A stretch of 64,000 nucleotides of DNA, from sequence record OL770073.2. One strand, given 5' to 3'. Under the pieces are notes generated by a model that saw nothing but the letters and a program-made list of their open reading frames with translations, was not told the DNA's origin and ran no database searches. Origin of the DNA: Escherichia phage vB_EcoM-RPN226. This document shows positions 65-50,809 of the stretch, piece by piece. The stretch's first letter is position 1. Every line of letters starts with the position of its first letter. Made by a program: the position numbers and the translations under genes.

Positions 65-796
65 TTAGCAGTATAAATATGATTCCCAACAATCTAGAGC
101 ACATCTTTTAGATATAAGTTTTCTGCTTATTCCGGTTTGACGCACAGCTTCTGCTATTGTTGGATATTCTACCCCATCTATACTTACTCTTAGATGGGGT
201 TTCTTTTTACCTCTTTGTGAGTCAGAAATTCGTTTTCTAACTTCATTGGTATGTGTCTGTCCATAATATGGATTATTGATGCCTTTCATATTAAGTGCAG
301 CGTTTCTTTCTTGGAACTTTTTGCTTATTTCTATAGCACGATCTAACCCATAGTGTTCTTCTATAGTTTTACCTTTAATATCTTTAGGTCTACCATGTTT
401 TTGCTTAAGTTCTTCTGGTGATAATTTTGAATTATTATTTTTAATTGCATTTGAAATTTTATTAAGGATTTCTTGCTTTCTTGGGTGATGAGATAAGGTA
501 TCCCCAAACGATGCGTCTGCTATATTATACCCATTTTCCTTTGAGTCATATTCATGTATCCAATAATTTTCACGTTCAATAATGATAGATTTTTCGTATG
601 GAAGTTCTTCTATGATTTTACATACGAAAGCATCTTTCCCATGCTTATTATAAGAACGTTGCAGCTTTATTGAATGATGATTTCCATTATCTAAATCTTT
701 GAAGTGTCGTTTCCATCGTTCTTCAAAATTAATTGCACTTCCTATATAGTGCTTATTGGTTTTAGTGTTTATAATAGCATATATTCCAGATTTCAT
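65..796 (-). CDS. GIY-YIG homing endonuclease, I-TevI-like, free-standing and antisense to nrdA
   Basis: 243-aa ORF; N-terminal GIYAI...HYIGS motif with downstream R, E and N catalytic residues, closely resembling I-TevI; C-terminal HTH-like tail; AGGAGA RBS before ATG. Confidence 0.85.
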   Translation of the reverse strand: MKSGIYAIINTKTNKHYIGSAINFEERWKRHFKDLDNGNHHSIKLQRSYNKHGKDAFVCKIIEELPYEKSIIIERENYWIHEYDSKENGYNIADASFGDTLSHHPRKQEILNKISNAIKNNNSKLSPEELKQKHGRPKDIKGKTIEEHYGLDRAIEISKKFQERNAALNMKGINNPYYGQTHTNEVRKRISDSQRGKKKPHLRVSIDGVEYPTIAEAVRQTGISRKLISKRCALDCWESYLYC

Positions 797-816
797 TATA
801 TTCTCCTATATAAAAT

Positions 817-828
817 TATATTTATATG
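817..828 (-). promoter_or_regulatory. T4-type late promoter (TATAAATA on minus strand) upstream of the GIY-YIG gene
   Basis: plus strand reads TATTTATA about 22 nt upstream of the minus-strand ATG. Confidence 0.45.
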
Positions 829-851
829 GGGTAACTTACTACAGAGGACTT

Positions 852-2285
852 ATGCAATTAATTAATGTTATCAAAAGTAGTGGTGTTTCTCAGAGCTTTG
901 ACCCGCAAAAAATTATTAAAGTTTTATCTTGGGCAGCTGAAGGAACATCTGTAGATCCTTATGAATTATATGAAAATATTAAATCATATCTCCGTGATGG
1001 AATGACAACTGATGACATTCAGACTATTGTCATTAAGGCTGCTGCGAATTCTATTTCAGTTGAAGAGCCTGATTATCAATATGTAGCTGCACGCTGTTTA
1101 ATGTTCGCTCTTCGTAAGCATGTTTACGGGCAATATGAGCCCCGTTCATTTATTGACCATATTTCTTACTGTGTAAATGAAGGTAAATATGACCCTGAAC
1201 TGCTGTCAAAATATTCAGCAGAAGAAATTACATTTTTAGAATCAAAAATTAAGCACGAGCGGGATATGGAATTTACTTATTCCGGGGCGATGCAATTAAA
1301 AGAAAAATATCTCGTTAAAGATAAAACCACTGGTCAAATTTATGAAACTCCGCAGTTTGCATTTATGACTATTGGAATGGCATTGCATCAAGATGAACCT
1401 GTTGACAGATTAAAACATGTTATTCGTTTTTATGAAGCAGTATCTACTCGACAGATTTCACTGCCAACTCCTATTATGGCTGGATGTCGTACTCCAACTC
1501 GACAGTTTAGTTCATGCGTTGTTATTGAAGCAGGTGATTCGCTGAAGTCTATCAATAAGGCTTCTGCTTCAATTGTTGAGTATATTTCTAAACGAGCTGG
1601 AATTGGTATTAACGTTGGTATGATTCGTGCCGAAGGTTCTAAGATTGGCACAGGTGAAGTGCGTCATACTGGTGTTATTCCTTTTTGGAAACATTTTCAG
1701 ACTGCTGTTAAATCATGTTCACAGGGCGGAATTCGTGGCGGCGCTGCTACTGCTTATTATCCTATTTGGCATTTGGAAGTTGAAAATCTTCTCGTTTTGA
1801 AAAATAACAAAGGCGTAGAAGAAAACCGTATCCGTCATATGGATTATGGTGTTCAGCTGAATGACCTAATGATGGAACGATTCGGAAAGAACGATTACAT
1901 TACTTTGTTTAGTCCGCATGAAATGGGTGGCGAACTTTATTATTCTTATTTTAAAGACCAAGACCGCTTCCGTGAATTGTACGAAGCTGCAGAAAAAGAC
2001 CCTAATATTCGTAAAAAGCGTATTAAAGCGCGTGAACTGTTTGAACTACTCATGACTGAACGATCAGGAACAGCGAGGATTTATGTACAGTTCATTGATA
2101 ATACGAATAACTATACTCCATTTATTCGTGAAAAGGCACCTATTCGTCAGAGTAACTTGTGCTGTGAAATTGCTATTCCAACAAATGATGTGAATAGCCA
2201 ACAAACCCGTTTAATCAAAATTAAGAAGTCGGATGTAGCTAAGTTTTATGAAGTTAATCCTGGCGGTATAATTCAAAGCAAATAA
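852..2285 (+). CDS. nrdA: ribonucleotide reductase large subunit NrdA, N-terminal fragment (477 aa; last 26 aa non-homologous)
   Basis: starts MQLINVIKSS; class Ia RNR large-subunit sequence through the NLCCEIAIPTNDVNSQQ active-site motif, then a 26-aa tail and stop; AGAGGA RBS. Confidence 0.9.
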   Translation: MQLINVIKSSGVSQSFDPQKIIKVLSWAAEGTSVDPYELYENIKSYLRDGMTTDDIQTIVIKAAANSISVEEPDYQYVAARCLMFALRKHVYGQYEPRSFIDHISYCVNEGKYDPELLSKYSAEEITFLESKIKHERDMEFTYSGAMQLKEKYLVKDKTTGQIYETPQFAFMTIGMALHQDEPVDRLKHVIRFYEAVSTRQISLPTPIMAGCRTPTRQFSSCVVIEAGDSLKSINKASASIVEYISKRAGIGINVGMIRAEGSKIGTGEVRHTGVIPFWKHFQTAVKSCSQGGIRGGAATAYYPIWHLEVENLLVLKNNKGVEENRIRHMDYGVQLNDLMMERFGKNDYITLFSPHEMGGELYYSYFKDQDRFRELYEAAEKDPNIRKKRIKARELFELLMTERSGTARIYVQFIDNTNNYTPFIREKAPIRQSNLCCEIAIPTNDVNSQQTRLIKIKKSDVAKFYEVNPGGIIQSK

Positions 2286-3108
2286 AGTACACAGACCGTT
2301 AATAAATAATCCATAACAAGAGGAAAAGTTATGGATTATTCTAAAATTTACAATAACCTTATTTCTAAAGCTAAGAACAGAAAATTAGATTGCTATACCG
2401 AATCACACCATATTATACCTCTGTGTATTGGTGGTTCTGATACAAAGGAAAACCTGGCAGATTTGACACCCGAAGAGCATTATATAGCTCATCAATTATT
2501 AGTAAAGATATATCCAGATAATCATAAATTGGTATTTGCCGCTAATATGATGTGTGTGTATTCTGAAGATAATATTGAACGAAAGAACACCAATAAACGC
2601 CATGGGTGGCTTAGAAGAAAATTGGCTATTTCTGTATCTGAAAATAATAAAGGCAAACCAGCTTGGAACAAAGGTATTCCGGTAACTGACGAGCATAGAG
2701 AAAAACTTCAAACAACTTGGGTATTTACTTTCCCGGACGGTCATGAAGAAATCCATAAAGGCCTAAGAGAATTTTGCGAACTACATTCACTCAATGCTTC
2801 GGCAATGTCGGCCGTATGCAAAGGCAAAAGGTCTCAACATAAAGGCTTTAAGTGTCGAAAGTTTGATAATATCTCTGAAAACGATAATCAAGAATACGTC
2901 AGTAAACCTCATCCAAAGGGATTAAAACCCCATAACTTAATTGCTGTAAAAATAAACGGTATAGAATATCAATCAATACATCGAGCATCTAAAGCTCTAG
3001 GAATATCTCGAAAAAAGGTAGAAGAATTAAATGAATATTGATTATGAATTTGTAGATGAATTTTACGAAGATGATGAGTATACAACAATACAAGTTATTG
3101 AAAACAAA
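2205..3108 (+). mobile_element. 904-bp insertion carrying an HNH endonuclease gene, interrupting nrdA between the NSQQ and GEVGLC codons
   Basis: NrdA homology stops at nt 2204 and resumes at nt 3109; the intervening DNA encodes the junction tails and an HNH ORF. Confidence 0.65.
2331..3041 (+). CDS. HNH homing endonuclease (MobE/I-TevIII-like family) inserted in nrdA
   Basis: 236-aa ORF; N-terminal YTESHHIIP...EEHYIAH HNH motif; C-terminal INGIEYQSIHRASKALGIS HTH-like tail; AAGAGGA RBS; stop overlaps start of downstream nrdA fragment. Confidence 0.8.
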   Translation: MDYSKIYNNLISKAKNRKLDCYTESHHIIPLCIGGSDTKENLADLTPEEHYIAHQLLVKIYPDNHKLVFAANMMCVYSEDNIERKNTNKRHGWLRRKLAISVSENNKGKPAWNKGIPVTDEHREKLQTTWVFTFPDGHEEIHKGLREFCELHSLNASAMSAVCKGKRSQHKGFKCRKFDNISENDNQEYVSKPHPKGLKPHNLIAVKINGIEYQSIHRASKALGISRKKVEELNEY

Positions 3109-4020
3109 GGTGAAGTGGGCCTTTGTACCCTTAGCGCATTTGTGCTGGATAACTTCGATTGGCAAGACCAAGATAAAATCAACGAATTAGCAGAAGTTCA
3201 AGTTCGTGCTCTTGATAATCTTTTGGATTACCAAGGATATCCAGTTCCTGAAGCAGAAAAAGCTAAAAAGCGTCGAAACCTTGGCGTAGGTGTTACTAAC
3301 TATGCAGCTTGGCTGGCAAGTAACTTTGCTTCTTATGAAGATGCTAACGATTTAACACATGAACTATTTGAGAGATTACAGTATGGACTCATTAAAGCAT
3401 CCATTAAGCTCGCCAAAGAAAAAGGACCTTGCGAATATTATTCAGACACTCGTTGGTCTCGAGGCGAATTACCTATCGACTGGTACAATAAAAAGATTGA
3501 CCAAATCGCAGCTCCAAAATACGTTTGTGACTGGTCGTCGCTGCGGGAAGACCTTAAGCTCTTTGGCATCCGTAATAGCACATTATCAGCACTTATGCCA
3601 TGTGAGTCATCTTCCCAAGTTTCTAACAGTACAAACGGTATCGAGCCTCCACGTGGACCAGTCTCTGTTAAAGAATCAAAAGAGGGTTCCTTTAATCAAG
3701 TCGTGCCCAATATTGAGCATAACATAGACCTCTATGATTATACGTGGAAATTAGCTAAGAAAGGTAATAAACCTTATCTTACGCAGGTAGCTATTATGCT
3801 GAAATGGGTATGTCAATCAGCTTCAGCGAATACATATTATGACCCGCAGATTTTTCCAAAAGGAAAGGTTCCAATGTCTGTAATGATTGATGACATGCTA
3901 TACGGATGGTATTATGGCATTAAAAACTTCTATTATCATAATACCCGCGATGGTTCTGGTACTGATGATTATGAAATAGAAACTCCAAAAGCTGAAGATT
4001 GTTCATCCTGTAAATTATGA
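3031..4020 (+). CDS. nrdA: ribonucleotide reductase large subunit NrdA, C-terminal fragment (329 aa; first 26 aa non-homologous)
   Basis: contains GEVGLCTLSAF, NSTLSALMPCESSSQ and a C-terminal Cys pair typical of class Ia RNR alpha. Confidence 0.9.
   Translation: MNIDYEFVDEFYEDDEYTTIQVIENKGEVGLCTLSAFVLDNFDWQDQDKINELAEVQVRALDNLLDYQGYPVPEAEKAKKRRNLGVGVTNYAAWLASNFASYEDANDLTHELFERLQYGLIKASIKLAKEKGPCEYYSDTRWSRGELPIDWYNKKIDQIAAPKYVCDWSSLREDLKLFGIRNSTLSALMPCESSSQVSNSTNGIEPPRGPVSVKESKEGSFNQVVPNIEHNIDLYDYTWKLAKKGNKPYLTQVAIMLKWVCQSASANTYYDPQIFPKGKVPMSVMIDDMLYGWYYGIKNFYYHNTRDGSGTDDYEIETPKAEDCSSCKL

Positions 4021-8296: not shown

Positions 8297-8300
<4 letters not shown>
8070..8300 (+). CDS. hypothetical protein (pseT.1-like)
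   Basis: 76-aa ORF, overlapping stop/start with neighbours. Confidence 0.5.
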
Positions 8301-9518
<1,218 letters not shown>

Positions 9519-27616: not shown

Positions 27617-27847
27617 TTAAAAGCTTTCTTCTACTTCATCGTCTGAATCTTCTAATTCAGCTCTTTTTCCTGCCAAAGCATCTCTCACAGAGATGTCATC
27701 AGTATCTTTTAATTCAGTTTCTTTAACTCTTTTCTTGTAATAAGCTTCAAGTTCTTCTAGACCTTCTAATGTTTGACAAGAGGCAATTTTACCCATAAAT
27801 TCATCAATAGAAGCTTCATAAAGAAATTGTTTAAATTTTAGTAACAT
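27617..27847 (-). CDS. uvsW.1: UvsW.1 small acidic protein
   Basis: 76 aa from MLLKFKQFLYEASIDEF (internal ATG of the 80-aa track ORF); acidic C-terminus. Confidence 0.75.
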   Translation of the reverse strand: MLLKFKQFLYEASIDEFMGKIASCQTLEGLEELEAYYKKRVKETELKDTDDISVRDALAGKRAELEDSDDEVEESF

Positions 27848-27872
27848 CTTTTTCTCCAAAGGGCCGGAGCCC

Positions 27873-28565
27873 TTATAAATTAACTGTTTTTCTAAGTATT
27901 CTTAGTTTGTACATTGATAATCCAGTAGCTTTAGAAGCATCTTTCATGCATTTATACTTAACACCATTTACTTCTATAGGTTTAGCAGCTGGGTTATTAG
28001 CTCCTGAATTATCTGGCATGTTATCTTTAATTTTCTGAATAGATTTAGCGGAATGTTTCCTTCCGTACATGCCGTTATTTTTACCCGATTGATTGATCGA
28101 ATGTAATCTTTTAGCTTCTTCAGTCCATTTCGTTGGGTTCATTCTTTTAGTTTTACTAATTTTATTTCCCCATGTAATTGGACGACTTTTCATGAGTTTT
28201 GACATATATTGTTTATGTTCTTCCGTATGGTGTTTTCCGTAAAATGGATTACCTTCGCCGGATTGAAGTTCTGCCATTTTACGACGTTCCCATGCGTAAG
28301 ATTTATTGACGTGTCTTTCATGAGTATTTGAATTCATTCCCATACATATAACGGCTTTAATTATACCGTAATGGTTTGGATGAATTTTAGCTAAAAGTTT
28401 ATGGGCTATAAAATGTTCTTCAGCCGTTAGTTCTACTAAATTACACTTATCATTTGTACCACCCATGCATCTAGGAATTATATGATGAGTTTCAGTGTAT
28501 CCATTAAGGCGAGCCCGATTCTGGGCTCTATTAATTAAATTATCATATATTAATTTATAATTCAA
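27873..28565 (-). CDS. HNH homing endonuclease (Mob-like) between uvsW and uvsW.1
   Basis: 230-aa ORF; YTETHHIIP...EEHFIAH HNH motif; NUMOD-like GNPFYGKHH and NGMYGRKHS repeats; C-terminal VNGVKYKCMKDASKATGLS HTH-like tail; apparent TTG start after AAGAGG. Confidence 0.75.
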   Translation of the reverse strand: MNYKLIYDNLINRAQNRARLNGYTETHHIIPRCMGGTNDKCNLVELTAEEHFIAHKLLAKIHPNHYGIIKAVICMGMNSNTHERHVNKSYAWERRKMAELQSGEGNPFYGKHHTEEHKQYMSKLMKSRPITWGNKISKTKRMNPTKWTEEAKRLHSINQSGKNNGMYGRKHSAKSIQKIKDNMPDNSGANNPAAKPIEVNGVKYKCMKDASKATGLSMYKLRILRKTVNL

Positions 28566-34876: not shown

Positions 34877-34915
34877 CTTTTCACGTGATGTGATAAAATA
34901 TTTATAGGAGGATTT

Positions 34916-36427
34916 ATGTCTATTGATATTTATAAAGATAAAAATGGCAAGCTGAACAAGAACTGGAAAATGATACACGCTAAACACCCTGAAATCATTG
35001 ATAGTATTGAGTTGCCATATGATGACCCTAAAACAAAAATCGTTTTAGCGATAAACGGAATGACAGAACTTAGCCGCTGTAAAAACTGTGGTGTTGAGAT
35101 GGATATCTCGAAGCTTGGCTCAGATTATTGCTCTAGAAAGTGTTCAGCTAACTCATCTGAAGTTAAGAGGAAAAAGCTTGATAGCATTAATCTTGAAGAA
35201 CGCGGCAAAAAAATTTCTGAATCTCTTAAAGGTAAATCCACTGCAAAATCTTGGAATACTCGTAAGAAAAAGTATGGTGAAAAAGGATTTAGCCAAACTG
35301 GGATAGAAGCTATCAAAAATAACGGAGTTAATTCTAGCGAAAAACGAATTAATACAATGATTACCCGTTATGGAGTTAAAAACCCGTTTCAACTGGAAAG
35401 CGTGATTGAAACTATATCCAAGGTTCAAACAGAGAATAACACCGCACGAAACCATTTACCCGGTTGGCTGTATGATAAGAATAAATTTAAACAAGTTTAT
35501 TCTAAATCTGGAATTAGAGGAATAATCAAAAAATCTGGCTGCGGTGCAAATTTAGCATATGTTTTATCACGTGAATATCAGCTCCGAGATATGAAAACTA
35601 CTTCGGCCGAAACAGAGATTCTGAGTTTTATTAATGAACTCGGGTTTGAAGCAGAGAAGACGCGCCAAGTGATAGCACCTTTTGAGCTGGATATCTATGT
35701 CCCAGAGAAGAAGCTTGCTATTGAGTTCAACGGTCTTTACTGGCACAGTTCAGGCTCAAAGGAACAGGACATTATTAAGAATAACCATCTCAAAAAGACT
35801 GAGATGTGTGAAGCACAAGGAATTCATCTGCTGCATATCTTCGAGAATGAATGGGTAGATGATACTAAACGCGAGATATGGAAATCGGTTATTAGAAATA
35901 AACTTGGTAAATCTGAACGCATCTATGCGCGTAAATGTAAGGTACATCCGGTTGATTCTAGAGCTGCTAAAGAGTTTTGTGAGTATAACCATTTACAGGG
36001 TCATGTCCCATTCCAGAATGCCCTGGGTTTATTCTATAACGATGAATTAGTACAGTTGGTCACATTTGGCAGAGGCCGCTATCAAGGTAAAACCGAATTA
36101 CTTCGTATGTGCACAAAACGTGGATACAGCGTAGTAGGTGGTGCTTCAAAACTTCTCAAGGATAAGAAATTTATTTCTTATGCTAACCGTAGATGGTCTA
36201 TGGGTAATGTGTATCAACAGATCGGTATGAAACAGATTGGTGTTACTCCGCCGTGTGACTATTATTTTGATAAAGGCCGTCTGTATCACAGGTCAAGTTA
36301 TATGAAACACTTATTAAAAGACAAGCTCAAAGTTTTTGATGAAAATCTTAGCGCGATAGAAAACTGTTATAACAACAAAATAAGAAGAATTTGGGATTGT
36401 GGTAATATAGTTTATGAATCCCAATAA
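34916..36427 (+). CDS. multi-domain putative nuclease (zinc ribbon, NUMOD-like motif, Vsr/DUF559-like PD-(D/E)xK core, unknown C-terminal domain); candidate free-standing homing endonuclease
   Basis: 503-aa ORF with AGGAGG RBS; CKNCG...CSRKC zinc ribbon; EERGKKISESLKGK NUMOD3-like motif; FELDIYVPEKKLAIEFNGLYWHSS...GIHLLHIFENEW nuclease-like core; antisense between genes 24 and 23. Confidence 0.65.
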   Translation: MSIDIYKDKNGKLNKNWKMIHAKHPEIIDSIELPYDDPKTKIVLAINGMTELSRCKNCGVEMDISKLGSDYCSRKCSANSSEVKRKKLDSINLEERGKKISESLKGKSTAKSWNTRKKKYGEKGFSQTGIEAIKNNGVNSSEKRINTMITRYGVKNPFQLESVIETISKVQTENNTARNHLPGWLYDKNKFKQVYSKSGIRGIIKKSGCGANLAYVLSREYQLRDMKTTSAETEILSFINELGFEAEKTRQVIAPFELDIYVPEKKLAIEFNGLYWHSSGSKEQDIIKNNHLKKTEMCEAQGIHLLHIFENEWVDDTKREIWKSVIRNKLGKSERIYARKCKVHPVDSRAAKEFCEYNHLQGHVPFQNALGLFYNDELVQLVTFGRGRYQGKTELLRMCTKRGYSVVGGASKLLKDKKFISYANRRWSMGNVYQQIGMKQIGVTPPCDYYFDKGRLYHRSSYMKHLLKDKLKVFDENLSAIENCYNNKIRRIWDCGNIVYESQ

Positions 36428-42463: not shown

Positions 42464-43021
42464 TCATTCTAGTAAATCCCAAAGATCTACGCTATTTCTT
42501 TTTGACTTTTCTCGGTTAGATTCCCAAGTGATTATTTCTAAATTTTTTACGCTTGCTATAATTTCCGGCGGAATTAAATTATCAAATCCATATTTGATAG
42601 ATACCTTGTGATCAAGTTGGTAAGCACCTTCTACGCCGCACAATCCTATTTTATCAGCATTCGGCCATTTTGACCAAATTTTTCTTATTTTAGCTGACTT
42701 AGTTATAGAATGAACTCTACTAGCATATAATGCAAACTCTTTTCTTTTACCAGTCCATCGAGGATGTTTATCGCCTCTTTGCCATGGTCTGCTTATTCCA
42801 GATTGAACTTCCGAATTTTTAATAGCAACTTGTTTAATGCTACATTTTCTACATGCATGTGTGGGTGTTCTATTTAAAAGCTGAATGCTTCTACTAAATT
42901 TAATACCACACAAATCACATTTAGCGTCAACTATTTTATTACTATTCTTTGGCATTAATTCTATTGGAACAGATATTGTATCATGATATGATACTTTATA
43001 TCCCAGAATTGTCGACCACAT
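42464..43021 (-). CDS. HNH endonuclease with N-terminal zinc ribbon, inserted between genes 18 and 19
   Basis: ORF with C-terminal YQLDHKVSIKYGFDN...WESNREKSKRNS HNH motif and CDLCG...CRKC zinc ribbon; start taken at the internal ATG (the track ORF extends to 43108 from a TTG). Confidence 0.7.
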   Translation of the reverse strand: MWSTILGYKVSYHDTISVPIELMPKNSNKIVDAKCDLCGIKFSRSIQLLNRTPTHACRKCSIKQVAIKNSEVQSGISRPWQRGDKHPRWTGKRKEFALYASRVHSITKSAKIRKIWSKWPNADKIGLCGVEGAYQLDHKVSIKYGFDNLIPPEIIASVKNLEIITWESNREKSKRNSVDLWDLLE

Positions 43022-43086
43022 TTTTGAATGATTTCTTGGTTTTATTGTAACAAACTTAGAAATAATCACTTGTTTCCTCGAGAATA

Positions 43087-43100
43087 GGGGCCGAAGCCCC
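43087..43100 (-). terminator. hairpin GGGGC-CGAA-GCCCC immediately downstream of gene 18
   Basis: GC stem-loop directly after the gene 18 stop on the minus strand; no clean U-run. Confidence 0.4.
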
Positions 43101-43108
43101 ACAATCAA

Positions 43109-48298: not shown

Positions 48299-50809
<2,511 letters not shown>

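Follow-up and report, generated by a model that had tools for sequence, protein, structure and literature searches.

A homologous C-terminal helix-turn-helix module on three homing endonucleases with two unrelated catalytic folds in a T4-like coliphage

We analyzed a 64-kb window (the whole stretch of 64,000 nucleotides) from a T4-like coliphage. Near its start, on the minus strand, lies a free-standing gene for a GIY-YIG homing endonuclease of 243 amino acids, a paralogue of I-TevI (positions 65 to 796; ORF, Pfam, PDB, Foldseek, and phrog_314). The protein matches Pfam GIY-YIG with an E value of 1e-15, and its catalytic domain (aa 1 to 98; 503 to 796, minus strand; Pfam, PDB match, and Foldseek) matches I-TevI (1MK0/1LN0) with an E value of 4e-40 and 69% identity. 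The predicted model agrees with 1MK0 at a Foldseek TM score of 0.98, and the GIY...YIG signature is visible in the sequence together with the equivalents of the catalytic residues R27, E75, and N90. A NUMOD3 motif, predicted to form a minor-groove helix (aa 171 to 191; 224 to 286, minus strand), was identified by PF07460 (E = 2e-6), by alignment to the I-TevI DNA-binding domain, and by an AF2 helix at residues 184 to 194. The C-terminal helix-turn-helix (HTH) tail (aa 203 to 243; 68 to 190, minus strand) was assigned by alignment to the I-TevI-DNA complex 1I3J (E = 2.8e-7), a subthreshold PF20987 match, AF2, and Foldseek (E = 5e-4 to 1I3J). It is laid out as a beta-hairpin, helix, turn, helix, and short strand (AF2 strands 204 to 206 and 209 to 211; helices 214 to 221 and 225 to 233). 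We found no Pfam match to the zinc finger PF22635 in the linker, and the residues aligned there include no Cys; the clade P0121 to P0134 has no zinc finger throughout, and the I-TevI orthologue P0142 matches PF22635 at 73.4 bits. The gene does not lie in a td group I intron: it is on the opposite strand, between uninterrupted td and nrdA (phages ECO07P5 and KP179). Its copy in a Klebsiella phage is 92.6% identical, as against only 71.6% for the neighboring nrdA.

The second gene encodes a Mob-type, I-HmuI-like HNH homing endonuclease of 236 amino acids and splits nrdA (2331 to 3041, plus strand; ORF, Foldseek match to I-HmuI, and phrog_655). The insertion point is around the SNLCCEIAIPTNDV|NSPDAEIGLCTLSAF codons. 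The top Foldseek match of the model is I-HmuI (1U3E; E = 2.4e-4, probability 1.0, 169 of 174 columns), and the protein is 44% identical to T6 MobE across the N-terminal 53%. An internal I-HmuI-type HTH module (aa 128 to 177; 2712 to 2861, plus strand) is indicated by PF22083 (E = 8e-8), alignment to the I-HmuI C-terminal domain, and AF2 (strands 129 to 133, 139 to 143, and 173 to 177; helices 145 to 151 and 156 to 163). After a 27-aa linker comes the C-terminal HTH tail (aa 205 to 236; 2943 to 3038, plus strand), which was identified by an HMM of GIY-YIG-family tails, hhalign, in-register subthreshold matches to NUMOD1 and PF20987, and AF2 (strands 206 to 208 and 211 to 213; helices 216 to 223 and 227 to 233). 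The internal module was also considered as a homologue of the tails, but hhalign was not significant (E = 0.1 to 0.5) although the register was right; judged by sequence, the module is linked to the tails transitively only, via I-HmuI. In a separate search, nrdA was absent from the 180- to 230-kb stretch of Aeh1, and tblastn with two tail peptides (E <= 10) returned 34 Tequatrovirus-like records and no Aeromonas phage, the half of this search done with the acidic peptide being weak through partial low-complexity masking.

The third gene, also free-standing and coding for a Mob-type HNH homing endonuclease of 230 amino acids, lies between uvsW and uvsW.1 (27873 to 28565, minus strand; ORF, paralogy, and phrog_655). 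It begins with a TTG that overlaps the uvsW stop and is found in T6 and about 48 phage records. Two NUMOD3 motifs (aa 94 to 122 and about 157 to 185; 28011 to 28286, minus strand; PF07460, E = 7.6e-14, two stretches), the second of which aligns with the I-TevI DNA-binding domain, precede the C-terminal HTH tail (aa 196 to 230; 27876 to 27980, minus strand; 1I3J, GIY-tail HMM, hhalign, and phrog_314). The nrdA-HNH and uvsW-HNH proteins are paralogous along their full length (35% identity across 236 aa; E = 1e-37), so that only two lineages are being compared here and the tail common to both is most simply inherited. In the HNH nuclease domain, the HH...N...H residues are visible and phrog_655 matches with an E value of 1e-59; Pfam HNH is subthreshold in both proteins (17.9 and 16.2 bits versus 21.4). 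A third HNH gene in the window (49074 to 49976) has only the nuclease domain in common with them, not the tail. The HNH homing genes are polymorphic for presence or absence among close relatives, and the enzymes would be expected to nick site specifically and to home into alleles lacking the endonuclease gene.

The original prediction quoted one peptide from each protein, and all three were found at their genes: aa 205 to 227 of the GIY-YIG protein (SIDGVEYPTIAEAVRQTGISRKL), aa 208 to 230 of nrdA-HNH (INGIEYQSIHRASKALGISRKKV), and aa 199 to 221 of uvsW-HNH (VNGVKYKCMKDASKATGLSMYKL). The proposed pattern, (I/V)(D/N)G(V/I)xY...A...GIS, is present in the three proteins, but uvsW-HNH reads GLS rather than GIS. 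The motif is C-terminal in all of them, as had been proposed, but the GIY-YIG protein does not strictly end in it because 16 residues follow. A regular expression for the motif, run over all six-frame ORFs of the window, gave exactly three matches, which are the three tails; by this expression and the GIY-tail HMM, no fourth copy was found among the ORFs.

The motif is short (about 23 to 30 aa) and pairwise protein identity of the three tails is modest (22 to 38%), as might be seen if a short peptide rich in Lys, Ile, and Ser, encoded by AT-rich DNA, had matched by chance or composition. The scores argue against such an origin. In an ungapped BLOSUM62 scan of 26,358 28-residue segments from all ORFs, the GIY-YIG and nrdA-HNH tails each had the other two tails as their best nonself matches, and the uvsW-HNH tail had nrdA-HNH first and GIY-YIG third (36, below the 38 of a segment from the ORF at 8297..8614). 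None of 100,000 shuffles reached the observed scores (z = 5.4 to 6.9). When the GIY-YIG protein was compared with each HNH protein by BLASTP, the C-terminal region only was aligned (E = 2e-6 and 1e-5). When 56 tails of the GIY-YIG family, not including that of the window protein, were made into an HMM, it recovered the nrdA-HNH tail at 26.3 bits (E = 1.4e-7) and the uvsW-HNH tail at 22.1 bits (E = 3e-6), whereas the next best of 500 window ORFs scored 4.6 bits (E = 0.86). Family profiles of the tails only gave hhalign probabilities of 97.4 to 98.2% (E = 1e-11 to 4e-14); against GIY-family tails, nrdA-HNH reached 97.7% (E = 1.7e-12) and uvsW-HNH 97.4%. As an independent check, the profile of the curated GIY-YIG family phrog_314 matched both HNH proteins in their C-terminal parts (uvsW-HNH aa 90 to 217, E = 1.7e-12). 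The region common to the GIY-YIG and uvsW-HNH proteins extends beyond the tail and comprises a NUMOD3 helix plus the HTH, about 60 residues in all. A chance or compositional match is therefore exceedingly improbable. The resemblance is real and homologous, and the claim that two catalytic folds, GIY-YIG and HNH, carry one module is borne out.

The predicted HTH-like character of the tail held up as well. AF2 gave the same secondary-structure layout, a beta-hairpin followed by an HTH, for the GIY-YIG and nrdA-HNH proteins, two of the three (pLDDT of 86 to 89; about 85 to 95 locally in the tail). Similarity to a solved member was found directly with 1I3J, the I-TevI DNA-binding domain, for GIY-YIG and for uvsW-HNH (E = 0.006) and via profiles only for the nrdA-HNH tail. 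The nrdA-HNH model found 1I3J only at Foldseek rank 17 (E = 1.0), a whole-chain, multidomain search being a poor test of a 30-residue subdomain. With a profile of HNH tails only, the best PDB match was marginal, the I-HmuI HTH (E = 0.045), in register (EYPSTKCACEELGLTRGKV). In Pfam, the tails fall between three HTH models that are related to each other (PF20987, PF07453, and PF22083). Curated membership was rejected, since all three tails fall under the gathering scores for PF20987 (21.4 bits for the GIY-YIG tail and 16.3 and 14.7 bits for the HNH tails; cutoff of 27) and NUMOD1 (16.3 to 19.7 bits versus 22.8), with all matches in the same register. Relatives above the PF20987 cutoff of 27 include the HNH protein P0269 (50.1 bits) and the I-TevI orthologue P0142 (107.9 bits). 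In all three window proteins, the HTH lies C-terminal to the nuclease domain and is joined to it by an extended linker that carries further NUMODs. The conserved residues determine the fold: the Gly sits where the hairpin turns, the Tyr ends its second strand, the Ala belongs to helix 1, and G-[IL]-S supplies the turn of the HTH and caps the N terminus of helix 2. This second, recognition helix is variable (SRKLISK, SRKKVEE, and SMYKLRI). By analogy solely with the I-TevI and I-HmuI co-crystal structures, the tails would bind DNA and take part in target recognition.

The presence of three endonuclease genes in one genome, with 1.5 kb between the tails that resemble each other most (GIY-YIG and nrdA-HNH), might suggest that a tail was copied from one gene to the others by recent recombination or gene conversion inside the phage genome. 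At the DNA level, however, the three pairs of tails are 48%, 40%, and 55% identical, and a synonymous-codon simulation expects 44.1, 38.1, and 47.8 identical bases out of 96 (P = 0.32, 0.58, and 0.05). The nucleotide identity is thus what random synonymous codons predict, which argues against recent exchange between the tails in this genome. Among other phages, each endonuclease gene can also be found in the absence of the remaining two. For example, ECO07P5 combines the GIY-YIG gene with an intact nrdA, and the match to HY01, which has the nrdA HNH gene, does not begin until window position 844, beyond the GIY-YIG gene. We consider recent copying very improbable. The three genes each have their own presence/absence pattern among related phages, and their co-residence therefore looks like the result of independent invasions.

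Across families, older and repeated exchange of the module between catalytic classes is supported. Tail subtypes interleave between the classes, and tail identity is decoupled from catalytic-domain identity: GIY-YIG pairs whose catalytic domains are 55 to 75% identical have tails averaging only 25%, equal to the mean between GIY-YIG and HNH tails, and some cross-class tail pairs reach 52 to 55%. A tail tree, built on 29 columns, required 8 switches of catalytic class. The interleaving could instead be noise over 29 residues combined with selection on DNA contacts, following one ancient fusion per class or convergence on a minimal HTH. Tails do cluster by class far above random (8 steps versus 22.8 with shuffled labels), the two window HNH proteins are plain paralogues, and the deep signal is weak because tail identity saturates near 25% within and between classes. 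On the other side, at least 5 switches were needed in every one of 100 bootstrap replicates, and close cross-class partners (52 to 55%) recur in I-TevI with the HNH protein P0269, the window GIY-YIG clade with the HNH protein P0008, and the GIY-YIG protein P0144 with the HNH protein P0206. P0269 also has the C-terminal extension of I-TevI beyond the HTH and clears the Pfam threshold. Moreover, one HNH domain family, the Mob type, occurs with at least four unrelated kinds of tail (HTH, Cys-rich, NUMOD3-only, and I-HmuI-type). Single fusions or convergence are therefore unlikely. The modular exchange in the original prediction is thus favored between families, with decoupled tails and at least five class switches, and is not supported within this one genome.

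We consider it very likely, taking the three parts jointly, that the tail is a subdomain of about 30 to 40 residues of the NUMOD1/I-TevI-DNA-binding-domain class (a beta-hairpin and then an HTH), that modules were exchanged repeatedly and long ago, and that the three genes arrived separately. The tail of the window GIY-YIG clade groups with nrdA-type HNH tails (up to 55% identity) over that of I-TevI (34%), despite 71% identity to I-TevI in the catalytic domain. It is conceivable, if doubtful, that this I-TevI paralogue was retargeted when its zinc-finger/HTH region was swapped for a Mob-type HNH module from the same td-nrdA neighborhood. If true, local and repeated trading of DNA-binding modules would take place among endonucleases that compete for the same genomic region.

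The crystal structures of I-TevI and I-HmuI with DNA suggest, by analogy, that each enzyme may act as an extended monomer. Its tail would hold it at the distal part of the target, which is long and asymmetric, and the grooves between tail and nuclease would be lined by NUMOD3 helices or by another HTH. The tethered GIY-YIG or HNH domain would cut or nick some distance off, in alleles without the endonuclease gene. The cut would then drive gene conversion, by which the endonuclease gene is copied into the cut allele; target sites, cleavage, and homing would presumably follow this scheme in all three enzymes. The module is homologous across two catalytic classes, most likely because homing-endonuclease lineages repeatedly drew on one pool of DNA-binding modules and recombined these with their nuclease domains. 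Such exchanges are very likely old, and the three genes very likely reached this genome separately.

Sharing of this kind is already known: it is the textbook NUMOD design of phage homing endonucleases, and the three proteins are uncharacterized examples of it. NUMODs common to GIY-YIG and HNH homing endonucleases have been known since 2003. They occur both in I-TevI, a GIY-YIG enzyme, and in I-HmuI, an HNH enzyme (PMC3943268, PMC3239194, PMC1564403). With this description and the I-TevI and I-HmuI structures pointing to a common pool of small DNA-binding modules, the discovery value is small. The window is nonetheless a clean worked example, since a single genome has three paralogous HNH domains that carry tails of two kinds and, in addition, an I-TevI paralogue bearing the HTH tail too. 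It could be of use to annotators of T4-like genomes and to engineers of Tev-type/HNH fusion nucleases because all three tails sit just under the Pfam cutoffs. The split nrdA nearby is probably the more interesting feature of the region.

Among the closest known systems is I-TevI, the T4 td intron endonuclease (1I3J/1T2T; PF20987), whose DNA-binding domain consists of a zinc finger, a minor-groove helix, and an HTH (PMC2988022, PMC1564403). Besides the closely similar catalytic domain, the NUMOD3 helix and C-terminal HTH of the window GIY-YIG protein align with I-TevI residue for residue, including the post-HTH R..S/D.W..Y extension, and both HNH tails align at the same HTH positions. Unlike intron-encoded I-TevI, the window GIY-YIG gene is free-standing and antisense between intronless td and nrdA, and its product has no linker zinc finger and a tail only 34% identical; the HNH tails, for their part, lack the post-HTH extension. 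I-HmuI, the intron HNH endonuclease of Bacillus phage SPO1 (1U3E; PF22083), superposes over nearly its entire length on nrdA-HNH (HNH domain, helices, and C-terminal HTH) at only about 20% sequence identity. In contrast to I-HmuI, nrdA-HNH is free-standing and has a second HTH, its tail, after the I-HmuI-like module, and uvsW-HNH has two NUMOD3 motifs in place of that module. The free-standing T-even HNH proteins MobA to MobE have the N-terminal HNH domain family (phrog_655) in common with the window HNH proteins, which likewise follow the mob architecture, where the HNH domain is fused to a C-terminal region that is distinct and has a presumed role in DNA binding (PMC2988022). As in mobE, the start codon overlaps the stop of the upstream gene; the insertion sites, inside nrdA and between uvsW and uvsW.1, and the C-terminal regions differ from those of the Mob genes and proteins. 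From the NUMOD systems at large, in which the NUMOD1 HTH and NUMOD3 helix occur on GIY-YIG, HNH, and EDxHD phage homing endonucleases, the three proteins show no difference in kind.

We examined three endonuclease genes of the window that were originally predicted to end in the same HTH-like motif, (I/V)(D/N)G(V/I)xY...A...GIS. They encode a GIY-YIG protein of 243 aa (65-796, minus strand), an HNH protein of 236 aa between the two halves of nrdA (nrdA-HNH; 2331-3041, plus strand), and an HNH protein of 230 aa directly after uvsW (uvsW-HNH; 27873-28565, minus strand). Public records list all three as homing endonucleases, and their catalytic residues are intact in the sequence. The gene order in the window is nrdA, nrdB, denA, and RNA ligase, with uvsW and structural genes further on, and many Tequatrovirus (T4-like) coliphages are 95 to 97% identical to the 6 kb around the tail finding.

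The tail peptides were found as described in all three proteins, and the motif, written as a regular expression, matched only these proteins among all six-frame ORFs of the window. We then scored the tails without gaps (BLOSUM62) against 26,358 windows drawn from every ORF of the 64-kb window. The GIY-YIG and nrdA-HNH tails each retrieved the other two tails as best non-self matches, and with the uvsW-HNH tail the other two ranked first and third. The intervening hit was a 20-residue segment of a 106-aa ORF upstream of pseT (8297-8614, plus strand); its score of 38 against the uvsW-HNH tail is as high as that of the GIY-YIG tail, and it could be a chance match or an unrelated HTH. None of 100,000 shuffles reached the observed tail scores. 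When each HNH protein was compared with the GIY-YIG protein by BLASTP, the C-terminal regions alone aligned (E = 2e-6 and 1e-5). With the GIY-YIG protein of the window left out, we built an HMM on 56 tails from its GIY-YIG relatives; it gave the two HNH tails 26.3 bits (E = 1.4e-7) and 22.1 bits (E = 3e-6), with the next best of 500 ORFs at only 4.6 bits. Profile-profile comparison of tail-only alignments gave probabilities of 97.4 to 98.2%, and the curated GIY-YIG family profile phrog_314 also matched both HNH proteins in their C-terminal parts. The ungapped scan, BLASTP, the HMM, and the profile-profile comparison are four independent tests, and all show a similarity beyond what chance or composition would give.

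The GIY-YIG protein and I-TevI, the endonuclease of the T4 td intron, are paralogues. In the GIY-YIG protein, residues 1 to 98 match the solved I-TevI catalytic domain (E = 4e-40; 69% identity), and residues 156 to 239 match the DNA-bound I-TevI DNA-binding domain (1I3J; E = 2.8e-7) across the NUMOD3 helix and the helix-turn-helix. Its AlphaFold model (pLDDT 86) superimposes on the catalytic domain 1MK0 with a TM score of 0.98 and retrieves 1I3J (E = 5e-4). The last NUMOD3 motif and tail of uvsW-HNH also align to 1I3J (E = 0.006), and the AF2 model of nrdA-HNH (pLDDT 89) is closest in structure to I-HmuI (1U3E), with 169 columns aligned at E = 2.4e-4. The two proteins modeled, GIY-YIG and nrdA-HNH, show one and the same layout of the tail: a pair of short strands, then a helix of eight residues, a three-residue G-I-S turn, and another helix, in agreement with the predicted HTH-like character. 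The conserved positions of the motif therefore fall on fold determinants, namely the Gly of the hairpin, the Tyr, the Ala of helix 1, and the turn G-[IL]-S. The presumed recognition helix is variable. Pfam has three related models, I-TevI_DNA-bd, NUMOD1, and I-HmuI_NUMOD-like, and the tails fall between them, with every hit in register but below the gathering score. The best PDB match of an HNH-only tail profile was the I-HmuI helix-turn-helix (E = 0.045).

Common sequence extends further than originally described: the GIY-YIG and uvsW-HNH proteins share a stretch that runs from the NUMOD3 helix through the linker to the HTH. This is the bipartite layout known for the I-TevI DNA-binding domain (PMC1564403, PMC2988022). 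The I-TevI zinc finger is absent from the GIY-YIG protein. The middle regions of the two HNH proteins are different modules. In nrdA-HNH, an I-HmuI-type HTH module (aa 128 to 177; PF22083, E = 8e-8) is followed by a linker and the tail, giving two tandem HTH modules; when profiles were compared directly, the match between this internal module and the tails did not reach significance.

Modular exchange within one genome had been proposed as the origin of the common tail. nrdA-HNH and uvsW-HNH are paralogues over their full length (35% identity; E = 1e-37), so no shuffling is needed to explain their common tail. At the DNA level the tails are 48%, 40%, and 55% identical, values reproduced (P = 0.32, 0.58, and 0.05) by a simulation in which protein sequences were fixed and synonymous codons drawn at random. 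DNA identity and simulation thus gave no sign of recent exchange between tails in this genome; what stands is a common module on two catalytic folds, through old exchange. Across families, comparisons support module exchange between catalytic classes. One Mob-type HNH domain is paired with HTH, Cys-rich, NUMOD3-only, or I-HmuI-type tails, and one HNH relative (P0269) has a full I-TevI-type DNA-binding domain that scores above the Pfam threshold. GIY-YIG pairs with catalytic domains 55 to 75% identical have tails averaging only 25% identity, equal to the GIY-YIG by HNH cross-class mean, and several cross-class tail pairs reach 52 to 55%. When 81 distinct tails are placed on a neighbor-joining tree, catalytic class has to change 8 times (in the bootstraps at least 5 times, with a median of 7) versus 22.8 times with random labels, and the clade of the GIY-YIG protein adjoins the nrdA-HNH family. 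Because the alignment has only 29 columns, this interleaving is suggestive, not conclusive.

gp13 and gp14 are separated by a third Mob-type HNH gene (49074-49976, minus strand; true start likely the internal MNYTKIY). This third gene shares with nrdA-HNH the nuclease domain alone (41% identity; E = 1e-23) and has a Cys-rich tail and no HTH.

Each endonuclease gene has its own distribution across phage records. The GIY-YIG gene occurs in 40, flanked by intronless td and nrdA. Its copy in Klebsiella phage KP179 is 92.6% identical, whereas the adjoining nrdA is only 71.6% identical; this disparity in sequence identity shows that the endonuclease gene itself has spread horizontally in recent time. 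The gene merits a look as a free-standing relative of I-TevI next to the very gene that I-TevI targets. It lies antisense to its neighbors (region 65-860), and upstream on the minus strand are the late-promoter consensus TATAAATA and an AGGAG ribosome-binding site. The uvsW-HNH gene, in about 48 records including T6, starts with a TTG overlapping the uvsW stop codon and parts uvsW from uvsW.1 (region 27617-28565, minus strand); T6 has the same insertion.

The nrdA-HNH gene (34 records) splits nrdA (852-4020) into nrdA-a (852-2285) and nrdA-b (3031-4020), between the active-site cysteines of SNLCCE and GLCTLSAF. Compared with the intact gene of phage ECO07P5, a 938-bp cassette (2198-3135) replaces 34 bp. 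It extends NrdA-a by a C-terminal tail of 28 aa, and NrdA-b gains about 26 aa, acidic/aromatic in character, at its N terminus. In Aeromonas phage Aeh1, mobE splits nrdA at the same structural site and in the same arrangement, and the enzyme there cannot assemble without such tails (PMC3045599). The cassette tail peptides, the acidic one partly masked as low complexity, had matches only in 34 Tequatrovirus-like records and in no Aeromonas phage. The split may be an independent second case after Aeh1.

Two other ORFs were noted. A 512-aa ORF between the genes for gp24 and gp23, antisense to both (34889-36424, plus strand), matches phrog_3339 ("homing endonuclease"; E = 1e-142), with weak Pfam matches to Vsr/MTES_1575 restriction-endonuclease-like and Mom-like families, and is possibly an endonuclease of the Vsr-like (EDxHD/Hef-type) kind. 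A 214-aa ORF between the gp18 and gp19 genes (42467-43108, minus strand) matches phrog_5104 (function unknown), with otherwise just weak zinc-finger and homing-endonuclease hints, and is probably another inserted mobile gene.

Co-crystal structures of I-TevI and I-HmuI and reviews describe such enzymes as extended monomers, with a nuclease domain tethered to a chain of small DNA-binding elements that jointly contact up to about 30 bp (PMC2988022, PMC3943268, PMC3239194). In alleles lacking the endonuclease gene, the tail would anchor each enzyme to the far end of its target and the nuclease domain would cut or nick at a distance; repair would then copy the endonuclease gene into the cut allele.

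NUMODs occur in I-TevI, a GIY-YIG enzyme, as well as in I-HmuI, an HNH enzyme (PMC3239194; likewise PMC3943268 and PMC1564403, both citing Sitbon & Pietrokovski [2003]). The NUMOD concept, modules common to GIY-YIG, HNH (and EDxHD) homing endonucleases, describes the same phenomenon as that seen here and already covers GIY-YIG/HNH sharing, so the tail finding is real, correctly read in outline, and known in kind. The I-HmuI structure paper reportedly likened its C-terminal domain to that of I-TevI. Tail sharing itself is already known, and the three proteins are further, uncharacterized members of the NUMOD-bearing endonucleases.
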